From the IMG/VR virus record IMGVR_UViG_2541047885_000020, positions 1 to 11,025 of that record: a stretch of 11,025 nucleotides of DNA; one strand, written 5' to 3'. Under the pieces are notes generated by a model. That model was not told the DNA's origin and did no database searches. It was given only the letters and a program-made list of their open reading frames with translations. Positions 2,879-11,025 of this stretch are shown here, in pieces (within the stretch, counting starts at the first letter, position 1; each line of letters starts with the position of its first letter). This DNA comes from a virus (lineage: Duplodnaviria; Heunggongvirae; Uroviricota; Caudoviricetes). A program made the position numbers and the translations under genes.

Positions 2879-2955
2879 TTACCTCTGAGGTAATTAAAAA
2901 CCACATAAGACATGAAATCAATAGAGCTTATAATATTTTGTTACCTAACGGGTAA
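2879..2955 (-). promoter_or_regulatory. Third operator/promoter module: two perfect TTACC-N5-GGTAA palindromes flanking a leftward promoter
   Basis: Palindromes at 2879..2893 (TTACCtctgaGGTAA) and 2941..2955 (TTACCtaacgGGTAA), centres 62 bp apart, the same spacing as in the PL module. On the - strand the 47-nt spacer aligns with the PL spacer (shared CTATTGA; -35 TTGATT = plus 2916..2921; -10-like TTTAAT = plus 2893..2898). Boundaries are approximate. Confidence 0.45.
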
Positions 2956-2967
2956 TTATCGAGGCGT

Positions 2968-2987
2968 AAAAAAATGCGCTATCGCGC
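2968..2987 (-). terminator. Weak intrinsic terminator after the P-like gene
   Basis: On the - strand: GCGC-GATA-GCGC hairpin (4-bp stem) followed by A and seven U residues, immediately after the P-like stop codon (2993..2995). The short stem makes this tentative. Confidence 0.3.
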
Positions 2988-2992
2988 TGGTA

Positions 2993-3793
2993 TTACTTGA
3001 TAAATCCTGCCGCCTTTCCCCGCCTGTATTCCTCCATCAGCCACTGCGCCGGTGTTATTCCCCCAAGGGTGGCGGCGTTAGGCATGCACCCGAAACTTCG
3101 CCCTGGTGGATGGTAAACGTCTCTCCCTGTGTCCGGAGGTGTACTCATGGGCTCTGGCTTTGCCTGTATGCTGATCACCGGATCGGGTATCTGCTGTCCG
3201 GAAGCCACCTTTTTCGCCCAATCATCGAGCAACCTGCGCGCGTGTTTCTCAACCTCAATCTCGCTAAGCTGGCGCTGATACATTGCACGACGGGTATCAC
3301 ATACGACCCAGTACATAACCGGATGCCGCCACGGGAATCTTTCGGGACCACCAGGATATAAACTTTTTTCCTTGCTGTACCGGTGAAACTCCGCCATCAC
3401 ATCGTCAATGGTGACGCCAAGAACCATCTTGCTGTCTTTGCACCACTTGATGAATTGCCCTGGCGACGGCCAGAACGGAGATTCACTGGCGCGGGCGTGG
3501 CGCATACCAGCAGAAACCTGTTCACGGGTACGTATTCCCCCTTCGGCAAACGCAGCAATCCACTGCTGTTTTGCAGCAACTTCCTGCTCTGGCGTCTTCA
3601 GGTTGGTTACCACTGCCGCCGGAAACAGTTGTTTCAGCTGTTTGAAAAGTGCATCAACAAGCCTCTCTGCTGACATGTTCACCACATTGTCATTGTTGAC
3701 GTACTGATGCTCATAACCTGACATGCGAGAAAGGGCTTCTCCGTCACGGTTTTGTATCGCGGTAAAAACGTTGTTCACAAGAAATCCTCCCAC
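2993..3793 (-). CDS. Lambda P-like replication protein (DnaB helicase loader)
   Basis: 266-aa ORF. By recollection of the lambda P sequence it shares FPA..., Q.W..AF.E.GI.T.EQV.AGMR.AR, PF.PSPGQF..WC and LYP....PW motifs in the same order. GTG start at 3793 overlaps the O-like gene end (3775) by 19 bp. Confidence 0.8.
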   Translation of the reverse strand: MGGFLVNNVFTAIQNRDGEALSRMSGYEHQYVNNDNVVNMSAERLVDALFKQLKQLFPAAVVTNLKTPEQEVAAKQQWIAAFAEGGIRTREQVSAGMRHARASESPFWPSPGQFIKWCKDSKMVLGVTIDDVMAEFHRYSKEKSLYPGGPERFPWRHPVMYWVVCDTRRAMYQRQLSEIEVEKHARRLLDDWAKKVASGQQIPDPVISIQAKPEPMSTPPDTGRDVYHPPGRSFGCMPNAATLGGITPAQWLMEEYRRGKAAGFIK

Positions 3794-4590
3794 GCTTCAG
3801 GGCTGTTCCAGTGCGGAACGTTGTTATCAGGTAATGTTGATTGCTTCTGTCTGCTAATCTGCAGCCGCCTTGCCAGCTTCTGCTCCCACTGTGCCTGATG
3901 GTATGCCTTACCCTCAGCCATCCAGTAAATTCTGAACTCTGCAAGTTCCTGTGCCGTTGGCAGACTGTCCAGGTAGATTCCCTGCAATGAGCTTTTCCGA
4001 AGAAAGTCATCTGATGGCTGCCATTGTTCATGCATGACAAATTTGCCTAATTGCCCTGGCCCACCAGGAGGAACAAAGTTATTCATCACGGCGTTGTTTG
4101 CGCCGGGGTCATGAGGCACAGAATCCCCGGTTTTTGTCCTGCTCTCCCTCTCTTGGTTAAATGACTGGTTATATGACTGGTTCTGGATCCCGTTTTTGGG
4201 ATCATTCAACATCCCGTTTTTGGGATCATTCAACATCCCGTTTTTGGGTATATTCCCGTTTTCGGGAACATTACCGTTTTCGGGTTCATTACACCCTTCT
4301 AGGTTGCCTTTAATGTTCCCGTTTTTGGTTATATTAAGAGAGAAAACCCGCACTCTTTTTGTCGCTCCCTTTCTCTCTCCGGTATCTGAAATAAGCCCCA
4401 TTTTCATGAGCGATATAAGCCCGGCCTGCACGGTTTTTTTATTCAGGCAAGTGTCTTTAACGAGGCGTTCTATGCTGGGGTAGCAGAGGTTATATTCATC
4501 GGCTCTGTCAGCCATCGAGAGCAGTATGAGCTTTAATGATGAGCTACCTGGATCTGTCTCCCAGGCCCAATCTGTTGCATGTCTGCTCAT
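3775..4590 (-). CDS. Lambda O-like replication initiator with an iteron-encoded repetitive linker
   Basis: 271-aa ORF; ATG at 4590 preceded by GGAG with 7-nt spacing. N-terminal HTH replisome-organizer-like region (LKLILLSMADRADEYNLCYPSIERLVKDTCLNKKTVQAGLISLMKMGLI); central low-complexity repeats (PENGNVPENGNIPKNGMLNDPKNGMLNDPKNG) encoded by the iteron array; position immediately upstream of the P-like gene. Confidence 0.75.
   Translation of the reverse strand: MSRHATDWAWETDPGSSSLKLILLSMADRADEYNLCYPSIERLVKDTCLNKKTVQAGLISLMKMGLISDTGERKGATKRVRVFSLNITKNGNIKGNLEGCNEPENGNVPENGNIPKNGMLNDPKNGMLNDPKNGIQNQSYNQSFNQERESRTKTGDSVPHDPGANNAVMNNFVPPGGPGQLGKFVMHEQWQPSDDFLRKSSLQGIYLDSLPTAQELAEFRIYWMAEGKAYHQAQWEQKLARRLQISRQKQSTLPDNNVPHWNSPEAWEDFL
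4187..4340. repeat. Iteron array, probable phage origin of replication inside the O-like gene
   Basis: Exact 24-bp tandem repeat ATCCCGTTTTTGGGATCATTCAAC at 4187..4210 and 4211..4234 (internal palindrome ATCCC/GGGAT), then degenerate copies (CCCGTTTTTGGGTAT, CCGTTTTCGGGAACATTAC, CGTTTTCGGGTTCATTAC, CCCGTTTTTGGTTAT) and an A/T-rich stretch to about 4340. Same layout as ori-lambda. Confidence 0.7.
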
Positions 4591-4605: not shown

Positions 4606-4806
4606 TCAGCTTGAGTGTTGTGGGGAGGAATTAATCATGATCTGCTTAATCTCTGCCCTGATGCGACGGTTTGATTCCATGGTGCACTCAACACAGTGTC
4701 CGTTGTAAACCCAGCGTTCACTGTCATGTCCATGCTTACATGGTTTTCCGGTGTAGTAGCGTTTAAGTCCGCGCTTTGCGGCATCAATACGTGTAATGAT
4801 TTCCAT
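4606..4806 (-). CDS. Small Cys/His-rich (zinc-ribbon-like) protein at the cII position, putative regulator
   Basis: ATG at 4806 preceded by AGGG with 6-nt spacing; the longer track ORF starts at TTG 4869 with no ribosome-binding site, so the 66-aa form is preferred. Motif PCKHGH-x10-HCVEC could bind a metal. Function not recognised; not similar to lambda CII as I recall it. Confidence 0.5.
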   Translation of the reverse strand: MEIITRIDAAKRGLKRYYTGKPCKHGHDSERWVYNGHCVECTMESNRRIRAEIKQIMINSSPQHSS

Positions 4807-4904
4807 GGTAAGCCCTGTTATTAGTATTGGGATTACGGTCATTTTGTGCTGACACAAAAAAAAGATCAACCAGATTTGGTTATTTATTACCTTTGAGGTA
4901 CGAA

Positions 4905-4935
4905 TAGATATGAAAAGACCGCCGGGTGGCGGTCT
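4905..4935 (-). terminator. tR1-like intrinsic terminator between the cro-like and cII-position genes
   Basis: On the - strand: perfect 8-bp stem AGACCGCC/GGCGGUCU with ACCC loop (plus 4916..4935), followed by UUUCAUAUCUAUU. It lies about 20 nt after the cro-like stop and about 100 nt before the next start. Confidence 0.4.
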
Positions 4936-4956
4936 ACAGAGGGTTGTAGCTGGATA

Positions 4957-5187
4957 TCATGAGTAGAAGAAGTATGCCAGTTCTGCTTTTGAGCGCAGCC
5001 ATTGTCTTGTTTTACAGGCTTTAAAAAGCCCATTCATCAATACTTTACCTGGCATTTTGCGCTTACCTGTTAAGTGAGTCTGGATATAGTGACTCGTCGT
5101 TCCGGCTTCCTGTGCGAAGGCTTCACGCTCATCCGGAGTAAGTGCAAGCCAGTGCTTTTTGAAATCGAAATGTCCGTTATCGCTCAT
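4957..5187 (-). CDS. Cro-like small HTH regulator (putative)
   Basis: 76-aa ORF divergent from the repressor gene across a 154-bp operator region; ATG at 5187 with AGG 8 nt upstream. HTH-like segment (DEREAFAQEAGTTSHYIQTHLTG). The call rests mainly on position and size. Confidence 0.5.
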   Translation of the reverse strand: MSDNGHFDFKKHWLALTPDEREAFAQEAGTTSHYIQTHLTGKRKMPGKVLMNGLFKACKTRQWLRSKAELAYFFYS

Positions 5188-5212: not shown

Positions 5213-5286
5213 ATAATAAATATTCACCCATAAGGTAACAAAAATCAAGGATAGTTACCTATGAGGTGCATTTACCTGTTGGGTAA
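5213..5286. promoter_or_regulatory. OR-like divergent operator/promoter region with three operator sites
   Basis: Operator-like sites at 5224..5238 (TCACCcataaGGTAA, 9/10), 5255..5269 (TTACCtatgaGGTGC, 8/10) and 5272..5286 (TTACCtgttgGGTAA, perfect). Leftward PR-like promoter on the - strand: -35 TTGTTA (plus 5236..5241), 17-nt spacer, -10 TATTAT (plus 5213..5218). The rightward repressor promoter was not confidently located. Confidence 0.5.
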
Positions 5287-5341: not shown

Positions 5342-5926
5342 ATGAAAAGTATCCAGGACGTCCGCAGGCAAAATCTCAACGACTTGATCGACCGTGAATT
5401 CAATGGTGTTCAGACGCGGATGGCAGAAAAACTTGGAACTCAGGCAAATCTGGTAAACCGCTGGGCTCTTGGCAAGAAGGTTATCGGCGACCAGGTTGCG
5501 CGAAAAATTGAAGCTGCCGCCAATAAACCCCGTAACTGGCTTGATATCGATCGCTCGCTTTCTCAGGAAGGTTTTCAGCCTGTCGGCCCAAGCGACATTG
5601 GTCAGCTGGCGGCTCACAACCTGGAACGCTGGATGAGCGAAAGCCGCGACCTTTCAACGCAGGGAAAACTTCACCGCGCATCCGGCGTCGCCCAGGTGAC
5701 AATCAGTCGCCTGTTAAACAATGAGGTCAGCGTTTCCATTTCCACCCTGGAGAATGTTGCATCCGCATTCGGGCGTCACGGCTATGAATTACTGATTCAC
5801 CCGCACGACCCTGCGACCATCAACTATGACCGCTCGCGCTACGCATTGTTACCCGAAACCGAGAAAGCAAAGATCGAAAGTTACATTGAATTTGTCATCA
5901 ACCAGAACGAAAAAAACAAACAATAA
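5342..5926 (+). CDS. Prophage immunity repressor, XRE-type with two HTH-like segments and no LexA/S24-type autocleavage motif
   Basis: 194-aa ORF between the OR-like and OL-like operator clusters, followed by an intrinsic terminator. HTH-like segments near residues 24-45 (VQTRMAEKLGTQANLVNRWALGK) and 110-135 (LHRASGVAQVTISRLLNNEVSVSISTLENVA). No Ala-Gly/Cys-Gly cleavage site and no GDSM/Ser-Lys dyad visible. Confidence 0.6.
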   Translation: MKSIQDVRRQNLNDLIDREFNGVQTRMAEKLGTQANLVNRWALGKKVIGDQVARKIEAAANKPRNWLDIDRSLSQEGFQPVGPSDIGQLAAHNLERWMSESRDLSTQGKLHRASGVAQVTISRLLNNEVSVSISTLENVASAFGRHGYELLIHPHDPATINYDRSRYALLPETEKAKIESYIEFVINQNEKNKQ

Positions 5927-5946: not shown

Positions 5947-5970
5947 AAGCCGCCTTCTGGCGGCTTTTTT
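5947..5970 (+). terminator. Rho-independent terminator downstream of the repressor gene
   Basis: AAGCCGCC-TTCT-GGCGGCTT hairpin (8-bp stem) followed by TTTTTT, 21 nt after the repressor stop codon; no U-tract in the opposite orientation. Confidence 0.7.
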
Positions 5971-5983
5971 ATTGCCTATACTA

Positions 5984-6060
5984 TTACCTGATGGGTAATT
6001 TTTTTAACTCATATCTATTGACATCAAACCAAATACGCATAATTATTACCTCAACGGTAA
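5984..6060 (+). promoter_or_regulatory. PL-like early-left promoter flanked by two perfect operator palindromes
   Basis: Operators at 5984..5998 (TTACCtgatgGGTAA) and 6046..6060 (TTACCtcaacGGTAA), centres 62 bp apart. Consensus -35 TTGACA at 6018..6023; -10 candidates CATAAT (6038..6043) or AATTAT (6041..6046) abut or overlap the downstream operator. The first downstream start codon is at 6080 with GAGG at 6067..6070. Confidence 0.6.
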
Positions 6061-6234: not shown

Positions 6235-6534
6235 ATGAACGTTAATCAGCAGAAAAATCTTCAAAAAATCATGCTGGCATTCGACAAGGACTACCGCCTG
6301 TCAGAACAGCTATATGACCGACAAGTTGAACTGATTGAGAGCATCCGACTTCATCAACTGTCCTCAACTTTCGACGTTGTAACAGGCAAAGGCGTTCGTC
6401 AGGAAGTGCTGGAGGCTGCTAAAGACAGCCCTGAGTTCGAAGAACTGATGGATGCCTACCGGCGCGAGGCAATGGCAATTATAGCGCGCTGGGATCTGGC
6501 GGATCAGCTTGATGGACAGAGGGACGCGGCATGA
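6235..6534 (+). CDS. Hypothetical protein (about 100 aa) coupled to the recombination module
   Basis: ATG at 6235 preceded by GGGAGGG; the track ORF starts at 6220 but the ribosome-binding site favours 6235. Its stop overlaps the exonuclease start (ATGA, 6531..6534). No family recognised. Confidence 0.6.
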   Translation: MNVNQQKNLQKIMLAFDKDYRLSEQLYDRQVELIESIRLHQLSSTFDVVTGKGVRQEVLEAAKDSPEFEELMDAYRREAMAIIARWDLADQLDGQRDAA

Positions 6535-7352
6535 AACCGGGAATTTATTTCGACATCAGCAACGAAGACTACCACGCCGGTGACGGCGTGAGTAAGTCGC
6601 AACTGGACATGGTTGCCAAGAATCCGGCGCTTCTTAAATGGGTTCAGGCAGCACCAGAAGACGAAGAGAAAAAGTCTGCACTGGATATGGGAACCGCATT
6701 GCACTGTCTGCTTCTGGAGCCTGGAGAGTTCGACAAACGCTTCATTGTTTCACCGAAATTCGATCGTCGGACGAAACAAGGTAAAGCTGACGAAGAGGCA
6801 TTTCTTCGTGATGTGGCGGATATGGGGATTACGGTACTTGATGCCGAGCAGTGGCGGAAACTGGAGCTGATGCGTGATAGCGCAATGGCTCACCCGGCGG
6901 CACGCTGGATGCTGGAAGCACCTGGTTACTGCGAAGCATCAATGTACTGGAATGATGAAGAGACTGGTGAGTTGTGCCGCATTCGTCCAGACAAATGGCT
7001 GAACGAGCACAACGTGATCGTCGACGTGAAAAAGGTTGCAGATATGGATCGTTTTGCACGCCACATCGAGGAATTCCGCTACCACGTGCAGGACGCAATG
7101 TACCGCGAAGGAGCGATGAGGGTTACTGGTCAGTCGCATGGTTTTTTCTTTCTTGCCGTGAGCGAAAGCATTGATTGTGGTCGGTATCCGGTACGCATGT
7201 TCGCGCTGGATGCGCCGGATGTCGATGCCGGGCACGCTCTGTTCCGCCGGGATCTGAATACCTATCACGAATGCCGCATCAATGATGAATGGGGCGGCGT
7301 GGAAATTATTAAACGCCCTGACTGGGCACGTAAACAGGATATGTACGTATGA
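6531..7352 (+). CDS. RecE-like PD-(D/E)xK exonuclease (exodeoxyribonuclease VIII-like domain), recombination partner of the annealing protein
   Basis: 273-aa ORF with a PD-(D/E)xK-like arrangement (...CRIRPDKW...IVDVKKV...YHVQDAMY...) and an N-terminal GIYFDISNEDYHAGDGVSKSQL motif resembling the RecE C-terminal nuclease/DUF3799 family. ATGA-coupled to the downstream annealing protein gene. Confidence 0.6.
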   Translation: MKPGIYFDISNEDYHAGDGVSKSQLDMVAKNPALLKWVQAAPEDEEKKSALDMGTALHCLLLEPGEFDKRFIVSPKFDRRTKQGKADEEAFLRDVADMGITVLDAEQWRKLELMRDSAMAHPAARWMLEAPGYCEASMYWNDEETGELCRIRPDKWLNEHNVIVDVKKVADMDRFARHIEEFRYHVQDAMYREGAMRVTGQSHGFFFLAVSESIDCGRYPVRMFALDAPDVDAGHALFRRDLNTYHECRINDEWGGVEIIKRPDWARKQDMYV

Positions 7353-8230
7353 GCAATGATATCGCAATCACATCACAACCAGGCGCAACTGTAGGTACTG
7401 CTGCGGCAATCTTCAGCCCGGAGGGCATGAATCAACTGGTGCGTTTCGCGGAGTTGATGTCACAAAGCAAAGCGACTGTACCGAAACATCTTGAAGGCAA
7501 ACCTGCCGATTGTCTGGCGGTGACCATGCAGGCGGCACAGTGGGGAATGAACCCTTTCGCCGTGGCGCAGAAAACGCATGTGGTAAACGGAACGTTAGGC
7601 TACGAAGCACAGTTGGTAAACGCGGTCGTATCCTCTTCCAGCCTGCTGGCGACACGCCTGAATTATCGCTGGAGCGGTGACTGGTCGAATGTTAACGGCA
7701 AAACAGATAAATCACCGAATCTGACGGTAACTGTGTCAGCAGTTCTTAAAGGAGAAGCAGAACCCCGTGAGCTTACCATCAGTATGGCGCAAGCCGGAGT
7801 GCGTAACTCTCCATTGTGGGAACAGGATCCGCGCCAGCAGCTTGCCTATCTTTGCACGAAACGATGGGCTCGCCTGCACGCTCCTGATGTGCTTCTCGGT
7901 GTTTACACCCCTGACGAATTACAGGAAACGGCACCGCGCGTTGAGCGAGACATTACTCCGCAAACAACTACTGCTGCGGGAATGAACAGTCTGATCAACG
8001 CTAAACCAGTGAAAAAGCCTGATGAGCAAACTCGTAAAGCGGATAGCCGTGATCCAGAAGAAATGCTGATGGCCTTTACCAGCGCAGCGATGAATTACAG
8101 CACTGTCTCCGAACTGGATAAGGCTTACAAATACATTGCACAAAAACTTTCAGATGATGACGAACTGCTGGCAAAAGCCACCGACGTTTACAGCGTTCGT
8201 CGGGAAGAATTAAACGAAACATCTATGTAA
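7349..8230 (+). CDS. RecT/Redbeta (Bet)-family single-strand annealing protein
   Basis: 293-aa ORF. From memory of lambda Bet it shares the core A-D-x-x-A-x-x-x-x-A-x-Q-x-G-[LM]-N-P-[WF] (ADCLAVTMQAAQWGMNPF here vs SDAQFIALLIVANQYGLNPW in Bet) and a downstream ERDITP motif. Sits directly after the exonuclease, as in recE-recT modules. Confidence 0.7.
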   Translation: MSNDIAITSQPGATVGTAAAIFSPEGMNQLVRFAELMSQSKATVPKHLEGKPADCLAVTMQAAQWGMNPFAVAQKTHVVNGTLGYEAQLVNAVVSSSSLLATRLNYRWSGDWSNVNGKTDKSPNLTVTVSAVLKGEAEPRELTISMAQAGVRNSPLWEQDPRQQLAYLCTKRWARLHAPDVLLGVYTPDELQETAPRVERDITPQTTTAAGMNSLINAKPVKKPDEQTRKADSRDPEEMLMAFTSAAMNYSTVSELDKAYKYIAQKLSDDDELLAKATDVYSVRREELNETSM

Positions 8231-8637: not shown

Positions 8638-8937
8638 GTGAGAAAGTTAAGCCGACTTGAAAAATATCACATGAATAAGGTTTCAATGCGCAGTCCGTCA
8701 AAGATTGTCGCCGTTACTCCTGCGGCGATAGAGATCGAAAAACGCGCGATTGAAAGAGAGAAAAAAGGGCAATTCCGCATTGCCGCTCACCTTTGGCTTC
8801 AGTGTATGGATGTTGCTTCTGGTGATGTTGAACGTGCAAGGATCGCGGTTCGCAGGGACCAATGTATCACAAAAGGTAACGGCCTTCGCCGTGGCGACTA
8901 TAGCGGCATAGGATGTTGTGGGGTGGTTTATGACTAA
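8638..8937 (+). CDS. PerC/ANR-family-like small transcriptional regulator (putative)
   Basis: ORF with a GTG start at 8638 (AGAGAGGG 9 nt upstream); ATG starts at 8671 or 8686 are possible alternatives. Motif EKKGQFRIAAHLWLQCMDVASGDVERARIAVRRDQC resembles the PerC-family pattern (G-x-[FYW]-R-x-A-A-x-x-W ... ER ... RR..C). The stop overlaps the methyltransferase start. Confidence 0.5.
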   Translation: MRKLSRLEKYHMNKVSMRSPSKIVAVTPAAIEIEKRAIEREKKGQFRIAAHLWLQCMDVASGDVERARIAVRRDQCITKGNGLRRGDYSGIGCCGVVYD

Positions 8938-9580
8938 GAAATACACACTAATCTATGCAGATCCACCCTGGGTATACCGGGACAAAGCCGCAGATGGTAA
9001 TCGCGGTGCCGGTTTTAAATATCCGGTTATGAGTGTGCTGGATATCTGCCGCCTTCCTGTGTGGGATTTGGCCGATGAAAACTGTTTGTTGGCCATGTGG
9101 TGGGTGCCAACACAACCACTCGAAGCACTAAAAGTTGTTGAAGCCTGGGGATTCCGTCTGATGACCATGAAGGGCTTCACGTGGATAAAATGTGGTAGTC
9201 GACAACCAGATAAACTGGTTATGGGTATGGGACACATGACTCGCGCCAATAGTGAAGATTGCCTGTTTGCGGTAAAGGGAAAACTACCTACGCGCATTAA
9301 TGCAGGGATCGTTCAGTCATTTACCGCACCGCGGCTTGAGCATTCAAGAAAGCCAGATGTCGTTCGTGAAAAACTTGTGCAATTGTTAGGCGATGTTTCT
9401 CGCATTGAACTGTTCGCCCGCCAGTCGTCTCATGGTTTCGATGTTTGGGGTAATCAGTGCGAAGACCCGGCAGTGCAACTACACCCTGGATACGCGTTGG
9501 ATATTGCCAGATTAACAAATGCATTCAGCAATGCTCCGCTGTCACCAACAGACAACCAGGGGCGGGAGCGTGCTGCATGA
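8930..9580 (+). CDS. MT-A70-family DNA N6-adenine methyltransferase (orphan, phage-encoded)
   Basis: Catalytic DPPW motif near the N-terminus (MTKKYTLIYADPPWVY...), typical of MT-A70 methyltransferases. ATG 8930 preferred over the track start at GTG 8918; GGGTGG lies immediately upstream. No cognate restriction endonuclease gene nearby. Confidence 0.8.
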   Translation: MTKKYTLIYADPPWVYRDKAADGNRGAGFKYPVMSVLDICRLPVWDLADENCLLAMWWVPTQPLEALKVVEAWGFRLMTMKGFTWIKCGSRQPDKLVMGMGHMTRANSEDCLFAVKGKLPTRINAGIVQSFTAPRLEHSRKPDVVREKLVQLLGDVSRIELFARQSSHGFDVWGNQCEDPAVQLHPGYALDIARLTNAFSNAPLSPTDNQGRERAA

Positions 9581-9774: not shown

Positions 9775-11025
9775 TTATTCCCCCGCCATCCACTTCTCAA
9801 ACTTCGACGGGGAGAACGGAATCAGATCCGTATGCTCCCCGTCAATCCAGGAATCAATCATATCGGCCCACTGCTGCAACATGTAGGCGCGCTGTCTGGC
9901 GTATTCCGCTTTGTTATATACGGCGCGCACACCTTTCTGCTCATGTGCCAGAGCCTTTTCAATCCAGTCTGAAGGATAACCAGCCTCATGCAACAACGTA
10001 CTGGCTGTACGGCGCATATCATGTACGGTGAAGTCCTGAATATGCTCACCATCTTCATTTATTATTTTCACCGTTCTGTCGATCAGAGAGTTCAGCGCGG
10101 CATTAGATAATGGCTTCCGGAAGTTGTAACGACCAGGAACCAGATATTCACTTCCACCAGCGCACATCTGCAACCCGACCAATATATCCTGTGCCTGTTT
10201 AGGCAGGTAAATAACATGCGCCCGGCTTCCCTTCATGCGGTCTGAAGGAATTGTCCATGTCCATTTTTTAAAATCTATTTCGTCCCACGTTGCATTGGTG
10301 AATTCGCCTTTACGAACCATAGTGATAAGCACCAGCTTTAAAGCCATTTTCATAGTGCCCATAGCACCAATGGCATCCAGCGTGCGGAAGAACAGGCCAA
10401 TTTCTTCTGGTGTCAGTGTTCGCTCTCGTGGTTTAAATATGGCGATAGACGAAGGTTTAATGTCAGCCGCAGGATTAAACAAACCATGACCACGGTCATT
10501 GGCGTGACGGTATACGCTGCTGATGATCTCCCTGGCCTGCACTGCTGTTGCCCGACCACCGCGTTCGACAATCCGGTCACACAAATCACGAACCATCGAT
10601 GTGGTAATTTCAGTCATCATTTTGTTGCCAAGAACCGGAAGTATGTCACGGTCGATCACCGCCTGCTTCATTGCGCGGGTACTGTCAGCCAGGATGACAT
10701 GTTTCATATAACTGTCGGTATGTACCGCAAACGTCTCGGCACCACGAATCTTTTTGATACCGTCACGTTTAGCCGCAGCCGGTGACTGGCCTGCTTTAAG
10801 CAGCTTCTTTGCAGCAATCAGTTCTTCTCGCGCTTCTGCCAGGCTGATACCGTCACGCCCATACTGCCCGATTACCAGTGTTTCGCGGCGACCGTTGATA
10901 CGGTAGTCATAGCGAAACGAGACCGTGCCTGACGTAAGCACAGCTACATACAGCCCGTCACGATCGGAGACCTTGTACAGTTTGTCCTGCGGCTTGAGGT
11001 TTTTTAATTTTGTATCGGTAAGCAC
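9775..11025 (-). CDS. int: Tyrosine site-specific integrase, P4/IntS-like; N-terminus at the window edge (possibly GTG start or 5'-truncated by the window)
   Basis: 416-aa ORF with the LTDTKLKNLKPQDKLYKVSDRDGLYVAVL N-terminal arm-binding motif typical of P4-type integrases and a C-terminal catalytic region (R...HDMRRT...LAHE...VRAVYNKAEY) with the conserved H-x-x-R and terminal Tyr. The first codon is GTG at 11023..11025, exactly at the window end. Confidence 0.9.
   Translation of the reverse strand: MLTDTKLKNLKPQDKLYKVSDRDGLYVAVLTSGTVSFRYDYRINGRRETLVIGQYGRDGISLAEAREELIAAKKLLKAGQSPAAAKRDGIKKIRGAETFAVHTDSYMKHVILADSTRAMKQAVIDRDILPVLGNKMMTEITTSMVRDLCDRIVERGGRATAVQAREIISSVYRHANDRGHGLFNPAADIKPSSIAIFKPRERTLTPEEIGLFFRTLDAIGAMGTMKMALKLVLITMVRKGEFTNATWDEIDFKKWTWTIPSDRMKGSRAHVIYLPKQAQDILVGLQMCAGGSEYLVPGRYNFRKPLSNAALNSLIDRTVKIINEDGEHIQDFTVHDMRRTASTLLHEAGYPSDWIEKALAHEQKGVRAVYNKAEYARQRAYMLQQWADMIDSWIDGEHTDLIPFSPSKFEKWMAGE

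Follow-up and report, generated by a model that had tools for sequence, protein, structure and literature searches.

In phage λ, the terminator tR1 depends on Rho, and N acts at nutR to overcome it. In Escherichia phage phiV10 (genus Uetakevirus, ε15-like podoviruses), an element between PhiV10p41 and PhiV10p42 is labelled 'putative rho-independent terminator' in the GenBank record (DQ126339.2, 33078..33100). The GenBank record of ε15 lists 'repressor / lysogeny' sites that read ATTACC-N5-GGTAAT, and a tetrameric Rep model for the SPC32H repressor is outlined in the summary given in PMC9638917. In N15, the CB repressor was shown experimentally to bind operators at a separate repA promoter (PMC4488713).

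We analyzed 11,025 nt of the IMG/VR virus record IMGVR_UViG_2541047885_000020 (the window; positions in Table 1). A 2-kb query spanning the region after the cro-position gene was 98.4% identical to phiV10, and of 5426 complete E. coli genomes, 562 (∼10%) carry a matching prophage (97–99.5% identity). These matches identify the window as the early part of a Uetakevirus prophage (ε15/phiV10 type). Its gene order is that of λ: repressor, divergent cro-position gene, terminator, small gene, and replication genes including one of the λ-P family. Rightward early transcription from pR reaches the cro-position gene first. Its product gave a sole match in PHROGs, to the broad family phrog_35 ('transcriptional repressor', E = 5.6e-13), and its counterparts are phiV10p41 and ε15 gp39. 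The 66-aa protein encoded after the terminator belongs to phrog_1081 (function unknown; E = 9e-43) and had no match in Pfam or NCBIfam. Pfam assigned the next two genes to replication, in agreement with the original prediction that replication genes lie beyond the terminator. The 116-aa regulator-like protein (1–351) matched nothing in a search of PDB sequences.

The terminator is already known from the phiV10 record, where the same element lies between the same two genes, and the regulation of this region is ordinary and largely annotated. What we add is a predicted operator and promoter after the cro-position gene that are conserved across enterobacterial genera. Neither the operator nor the downstream promoter is annotated in the records of phiV10, ε15, ZX5, Tyrion, and SPC32H. 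The terminator had been described as tR1-like in the original prediction. The likeness holds for its position between the cro-position gene and the replication genes, and fails for the mechanism: unlike in λ, the terminator of the window is predicted to be intrinsic and not Rho-dependent, a conserved candidate promoter follows it, and N, boxA, and a conserved boxB were not found in the searches given below.

Table 1. Early-region features in window coordinates, listed from the integrase end toward the DUF1064 gene
Feature	Position	Strand	Details
P4-type integrase	9775–11025	−	
Early-left operon		+	includes RecE/RecT-like genes 6531–8230
Cassette after rep	5947..6060	+	terminator 5947–5966 (strong, score +45); operator 5984–5998; 19 nt; pL TTGACA-17-AATTAT (6018–6046); operator 6046–6060 at −10
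Repressor Rep	5342–5926	+	two HTH domains; Pfam HTH_3
OR, three Rep operators	5224–5238, 5255–5269, 5272–5286		between rep and cro-position gene; overlaps pR
pR-like promoter	5241..5213	−	TTGTTA-17-TATTAT; promoter scan
cro-position gene, 76 aa	4957..5187	−	divergent from rep; TGA stop 4959..4957
Upstream hairpin, 5-bp stem / 6-nt loop	4949..4934	−	CUACAACCCUCUGUAG
Intrinsic terminator	4906..4935	−	AGACCGCC-ACCC-GGCGGUCU (4935..4916), tail UUUCAUAUCU; consensus scan
Predicted Rep operator	4887–4901		TTACCTTTGAGGTAC (+ strand); one mismatch to TTACC-N5-GGTAA
Inverted repeat CC(A/G)-N4-(T/C)GG	4870..4879	−	conserved in the 12-lineage alignment; abuts −35
Prep, proposed σ70 promoter	4841..4869	−	−35 TTGATC (4869..4864), 17-nt spacer, −10 CAAAAT (4846..4841)
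Cassette after cro-position gene			terminator (moderate, +17); operator 4901..4887; 17 nt; TTGATC-17-CAAAAT; no operator at −10 (TGACC)
66-aa gene, CxxH…CxxC	4606..4806	−	first after terminator; = phiV10p42 / ε15 gp40
HTH_36/DnaT initiator-like replication gene	3775–4590	−	Pfam
λ-P family (P-like) replication gene	2993–3793	−	Pfam
Cassette after P-like gene (P3)	2879..2987	−	terminator 2987..2976 (weak, 4-bp stem + T7; annotated in phiV10); operator 2955..2941; 19 nt; TTGATT-17-TTTAAT (2921..2893); operator 2893..2879 at −10
DUF1064 gene	2528–2875	−	next after P-like gene

Terminator, upstream hairpin, and antitermination features

Genome contigs were queried with the cro-like protein, which gave diverged prophages of Citrobacter, Erwinia, Kluyvera, Pseudescherichia, Buttiauxella, Pseudocitrobacter, Scandinavium, and Klebsiella. 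Phages ZX5, Tyrion, and ε15 were added to this set, and the sequence between the cro stop and the start codon of the following gene was aligned for 12 lineages from 11 genera. An IMG/VR scan with the Cro-like protein retained 80 loci, all with a 100% identical protein, and these close relatives report population polymorphism only.

The terminator stem has 8 bp, 6 of them G-C, and closes a 4-nt loop (ACCC). Its U tract is UUUU followed by C; read behind a 7-bp stem, the tail is UUUUCAUAUCU, with U at 5 of the first 8 nt. When the − strand transcript was folded, as the original prediction had proposed, the terminator reached −15 kcal/mol (z = −6.0; equalled by 0 of 200 dinucleotide shuffles) and the hairpin upstream of it only −2.8 kcal/mol. 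GC hairpins of −11 to −16 kcal/mol were present at the equivalent place in all 12 enterobacterial lineages, with stems that vary (GACCGCC, GGCCGCC, GCCGCC, UGCCGCC…GGCGGCA, GGCCGC/GCGGCC, GCCACC/GGUGGC, and GCCGUC/GGCGGC). In an unrefined alignment of the 12 lineages, stem positions were paired in 83% of cells vs. 26–65% in slid controls, and two stem pairs showed changes on both sides. The covariation evidence is modest because many alignment rows are related; the pair counts are conservative because MAFFT misaligned hairpins with longer loops. Among the close relatives (n = 78), changes in the terminator fell mainly in the loop or were compatible with wobble pairing. The GC-rich stem-loop and U tract named in the original prediction were thus supported by the scan, the fold, the 12 lineages, and the phiV10 annotation. 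We consider the hairpin and U tract after cro to be real, and we infer that transcripts end there.

Reading the tails by eye, we found a U tract behind the hairpin in 8 of the 12 lineages. It is missing in ε15/SPC32H (unlike in the window), Citrobacter, Kluyvera, and Klebsiella, where the tails are UCCUUCC-like. A d'Aubenton-Carafa-type terminator score was +17 for the window and +17 to +32 for seven lineages including the window, marginal for Pseudocitrobacter (−8), and clearly negative for the same four lineages that lack the U tract. The scan overlooked the Tyrion terminator because maximal stem extension swallowed the U tract. Since 4 of the 12 lineages lack the tract, termination after cro is not required in all of them, and in these four, transcription that reads through from pR probably contributes. 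By this comparison, the predicted termination is a feature of phiV10/Tyrion-type lineages, and the promoter block described below is universal in the 12 lineages.

The hairpin is more widely kept (12 lineages) than the U tract (only 8), as would be expected if its main role were not termination but RNA stability or processing at the 3′ end of the cro message, or a role at the DNA level. We regard this explanation as very unlikely: a canonical U tract directly follows the stem in the window and seven other lineages, and the hairpin lies in the correct orientation on the strand of the cro-position gene, 22 nt past its TGA stop. The two roles are also not mutually exclusive, since a terminator hairpin stabilises the 3′ end as well.

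Termination at this site could be partial. If the terminator were only a leaky attenuator, the replication genes would be transcribed mainly by read-through from pR, the terminator would set the ratio of Cro-like to replication protein, and the TTGATC…CAAAAT block would serve otherwise. The short U tract, the score of +17 vs. +45 for the rep terminator, and the read-through evidently tolerated in the four lineages without a U tract are in keeping with such an arrangement. We nevertheless think it unlikely, for reasons that come from the promoter block and are given in the next section.

The 5-bp stem / 6-nt loop hairpin that was predicted just upstream of the terminator exists as written and has two bases in common with the 8-bp terminator stem. 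Beyond its presence, it proved no better than chance. On the − strand, perfect hairpins of this class (5-bp stem, 3–8-nt loop) number 9 per kb vs. ∼6 per kb in shuffled sequence. All 5 pairs are kept in 26 of 78 near-identical IMG/VR relatives and broken in 52, where CCACA, CAACA, or TCACA stands opposite an unchanged UGUAG with no compensation. Tyrion, ε15, and the remaining lineages of the 12-lineage set have no equivalent. Given its low stability, its absence from other lineages, and its uncompensated breakage in these 52 relatives, the hairpin looks like a chance feature. It was also considered as a boxB-like element (6-nt loop ACCCUC) and rejected on the same breakage and its absence from other lineages.

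The hairpin and terminator after cro resemble λ nutR–tR1 in position, and for several small early ORFs no function is known; in principle, RNA polymerase from pR could be subject to processive antitermination by an unrecognised factor that the phage encodes, either a protein or an RNA (nut/N, put, or Q type). We find this very improbable. The original prediction had noted that no Arg-rich N-like protein is encoded after pL, and this stands: the pL-proximal ORFs are not Arg-rich (50 aa with 2 Arg; 104 aa with pI 4.7), and neither these nor selected other early ORFs matched N- or Q-type families in Pfam, PHROGs, and NCBIfam. The boxA search (CGCTCTTTA-like) gave one site at 1 mismatch (1130–1138) vs. 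2.3 expected, and no site close to pR, pL, or either hairpin. The hairpin considered as a boxB is unconserved and broken in most close relatives. The pR leader of ∼20 nt is too short for a put-type RNA, and nothing put-sized (∼70 nt) folds or is conserved here. An Rfam search of the whole window at E ≤ 10 returned nothing in 4880–4960 and weak chance matches elsewhere, although Rfam may hold no put model. The wider search for an antiterminator that had been suggested found none in the annotation of the entire phiV10 genome record or among the scanned early ORFs. RNA-based or host-factor antitermination, one of the three options offered in the original prediction, is thus left with no feature pointing to it.

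Candidate promoter of the replication genes

The proposed promoter Prep begins ∼47 nt past the terminator stem; its predicted start is near 4834, with a leader of 28 nt. It matches 8 of 12 σ70 consensus positions (the scan threshold was 9/12), among them A2 and T6 in the −10 hexamer, and 18 equally good σ70 sites lie on the − strand of the 11-kb window. For these two reasons the argument for Prep rests on its conservation, and the 8/12 match is a further point in favor of a leaky attenuator.

Mean column identity in the alignment of the 12 lineages was 63%. The only invariant runs of at least 5 columns were GGTAA, GGTTGAT, and AAAAT, and all other invariant runs were at most 1 column long. In each of the 12 lineages, 17 nt separate the operator end from TTGAT(C/A). 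Where measured (10 lineages), the Prep spacer has 16–17 nt, and the layout in Buttiauxella and Scandinavium is consistent with this. The spacer sequence is free to vary between lineages; the second hexamer reads CAAAAT, GAAAAT, or AAAAAT. Of 76 close relatives, 72 kept TTGATC and all 76 kept CAAAAT; polymorphism was located in an arm of the upstream hairpin, in the terminator loop, in the distal half and centre of the operator, and just past the −10. ZX5/TL-2011b-type phages carry another replication module. Their identity to the window is 98–99.6% as far as 4864, the end of TTGATC; past this point blastn gives no alignment, yet CAAAAT is retained 16 nt on.

Invariant hexamers at a fixed spacing, with a spacer free in sequence, form a classic promoter footprint. 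This footprint argues against a leaky attenuator as the whole explanation, as do the retention of the block across two unrelated replication modules, the location of ori-like iterons elsewhere, and the recurrence of the same element order at two further places where a promoter is expected (next section). We also considered the conserved TTGATC block as an origin of replication. The iteron-like tandem repeats (4154–4292) lie inside the HTH_36/DnaT initiator-like gene, so the ori is likely elsewhere; the block is moreover common to two replication modules, and this candidate was rejected. An antisense oop-like promoter, TCTACA-16-TATCAT (4933–4960, + strand), was rejected because it is unconserved outside the close relatives.

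We concluded that TTGATC-17-CAAAAT is most likely the replication genes' own σ70 promoter. A promoter of their own in 4810..4900 had been the third option of the original prediction, and with Prep at this place and the comparative data it is the best fit of the three. Our search for a published Uetakevirus transcriptome found none, nor did it turn up mapped start sites or Term-seq, Northern, or in vitro results on termination here, and the ZX5 paper offers generic promoter predictions only.

Repressor operators and repeated cassettes

Rep of the window matched SPC32H Rep (PDB 5D50) over residues 1–190 (full length; E = 4e-42), and with this homologous repressor the window shares the 15–17-bp operator palindrome (A)TTACC-N5-GGTAA(T) of ε15/SPC32H. 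Allowing up to 2 mismatches, the operator motif occurs 14 times in the window vs. 3.0 ± 1.7 expected, and 0 of 200 shuffles reached 14. Perfect or near-perfect copies are found at OR (three), flanking pL (two), and before the DUF1064 gene (two). This enrichment, and the identity of the motif with the annotated ε15 sites, upheld the operator-like site that had been predicted downstream of the terminator; judged by them, the site at 4887–4901 is one copy of the Rep operator motif and not a chance match. Its promoter-proximal half GGTAA is unchanged in all 12 lineages, and its distal half is lost in Erwinia and Scandinavium. Unlike the annotated repressor sites of ε15, the post-cro site is single and imperfect.

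The order terminator, operator, promoter occurs three times in the window: after rep, after the P-like gene, and after the cro-position gene. In the two complete cassettes the operators are 62 bp apart centre to centre. The same spacing is found in phiV10, ZX5, Tyrion, and ε15; in ε15, as in the window, the pairs flank pL and the promoter that follows the replication genes. It would fit one Rep tetramer bridging both sites. Near Prep no second full operator was found, and at the −10 there is at best a half-site. This half-site, T(T/G/A)ACC, would lie 59–60 bp from the post-cro operator, vs. 62 bp at pL and P3; it reads TGACC in the window, TTACC in 6 of the 12 aligned lineages, and TAACC in most close E. 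coli relatives.

The post-cro operator is 17 nt from the −35 hexamer, near the 19 nt found at pL and P3, and Prep would therefore be under repressor control, with Rep binding at 4887–4901 and repressing it. In this respect the locus resembles N15, where the prophage repressor also acts beyond OR, at a separate promoter of a replication gene. Unlike in N15, Rep binding in the window is a prediction; the phage, the repressor, and the operator sequences are unrelated, and N15 has a Q-like antiterminator. Long-range looping from the post-cro operator to OR was considered as well. The distance between them ranges from 324 to 341 bp among the lineages, and the helical phase is not conserved; with distances out of phase, looping was left as a low-probability reading.

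Proposed organization and its significance

We consider it fairly probable that the early-right region consists of separate units, namely pR–cro with its terminator and a replication operon with its own repressor-gated promoter, and that no N is needed. Transcription from pR would give a short transcript of the cro-position gene only, stopping at least partly at the terminator. The replication operon (the 66-aa, DnaT/HTH_36 initiator-like, and λ-P-like genes) would be transcribed from Prep, as its conservation suggests, and the operator upstream of the −35 would tie Prep to the prophage repressor. With such a promoter for each unit, an N-type antiterminator would not be required. Leaky termination may coexist with Prep.

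A broader reading, which we hold to be quite unlikely, is that ε15-type phages run their entire early programme without antitermination, as terminator-insulated, repressor-gated cassettes, with the post-cro cassette deliberately different. The latter has one full operator centred near −60 and a half-site only at −10. A position near −60 is typical for class-I activators. If this were true, tetrameric Rep would control Prep by another rule than pL and P3: it might give weaker repression, set the firing order during antirepressor titration, or even stimulate the promoter, and the post-cro operator might pair with the odd third OR operator across the cro gene.

The significance of the separate-unit organization is small: the presence of a terminator before essential replication genes in a phage without N would be explained by a separate, conserved, and probably repressor-controlled promoter. 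It may be of use in the annotation of the common ε15/phiV10-type prophages of E. coli and in the engineering of phiV10-type phages. The repeated layout, together with the invariant 62-bp spacing at pL and P3, may interest researchers working on tetrameric repressors of the SPC32H type.

Paired operators at the early promoters

Two perfect operators of the prophage repressor Rep (TTACC-N5-GGTAA) flank the early-left promoter pL, and their centres are exactly 62 bp apart. The DUF1064 gene's promoter likewise carries two perfect operators, again 62 bp centre to centre. At both promoters a gap of 19 nt separates one operator from the −35 element downstream of it, and the last base of the −10 element is also the first base of the other operator. 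Since the 62-bp spacing is identical in phages phiV10, ZX5, Tyrion and ε15 (L001–L004), the arrangement suggests that a single Rep tetramer clamps both operators around the promoter.

Positions in the window of the features described in this part
Feature	Positions	Strand	Sequence or composition
Paired operators around pL	5984–6060		TTACC-N5-GGTAA, two perfect copies
Paired operators at the DUF1064-gene promoter	2879–2955		TTACC-N5-GGTAA, two perfect copies
Operator-like sequence, cro-position gene	5063–5077		TTACCTGTTAAGTGA, 2 mismatches
Promoter-like site	4933–4960	+	TCTACA-16-TATCAT
Inverted repeat	4870–4879		CC(A/G)-N4-(T/C)GG
−35 hexamer, proposed replication-operon promoter	4864–4869	−	TTGATC
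Three tandem-repeat arrays	4154–4292		12 bp × 2.4; 24 bp × 2.6 (100% match); 18 bp × 3.1
Overlapping YqaJ/RecE-like exonuclease and RecT-like ORFs	6531–7352, 7349–8230
Phage-encoded adenine methylase	8918–9580

The operator-like sequence within the cro-position gene, which ZX5 and Kluyvera also have, falls on the conserved coding motif HLTGK and therefore probably just reflects the protein sequence.

The mosaic joint and its surroundings

A mosaic joint was located at 4864, the last base of the −35 hexamer TTGATC. ZX5, TL-2011b, HEMP4 and related phages match the window at 97–99.8% identity from about 5350 down to this base; past it, phages of this type carry a different replication module that blastn cannot align to the window. 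The immunity module, including terminator, operator and −35, travels as a single unit.

The invariant −35 hexamer includes the Dam target GATC, and an adenine methylase gene is among those of the phage itself. The inverted repeat directly upstream of the −35 is kept in 12/12 aligned lineages, several of which read TTATCCA there, resembling a DnaA box. On the opposite strand, a promoter-like site overlaps the hairpins; transcription from it would enter the cro-position gene at its 3′ end in the antisense direction, much as for λ oop. This site is probably a chance occurrence, because it is not conserved beyond close relatives.

Replication and recombination genes

The HTH_36/DnaT initiator-like gene contains three adjacent tandem-repeat arrays. 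These are iteron-like and probably mark the replication origin, as in λ O. Two of the repeat copies were called terminator-like on the + strand by the scan tool.

The exonuclease and RecT-like genes form two overlapping ORFs in the window, whereas the original phiV10 record gives one fused 'recET' CDS of 1761 nt. A 408-bp contig (L085, NZ_RAVW01000927.1; coverage 0.75) from an assembly of the myxobacterium Corallococcus exercitus has exactly the sequence of this E. coli phage region, and is almost certainly contamination.

Operator specificity across hosts

The TTACC/GGTAA half-sites at OR (the three operators at 5224–5286) and pL are common to prophages of nine genera (L086–L094, L003 and L004), namely Citrobacter, Kluyvera, Klebsiella, Buttiauxella, Pseudocitrobacter, Scandinavium, Erwinia, Enterobacter and Salmonella. 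The repressors of these prophages have diverged despite the identical half-sites. Temperate phages do not usually share one operator specificity over such a wide range of hosts.
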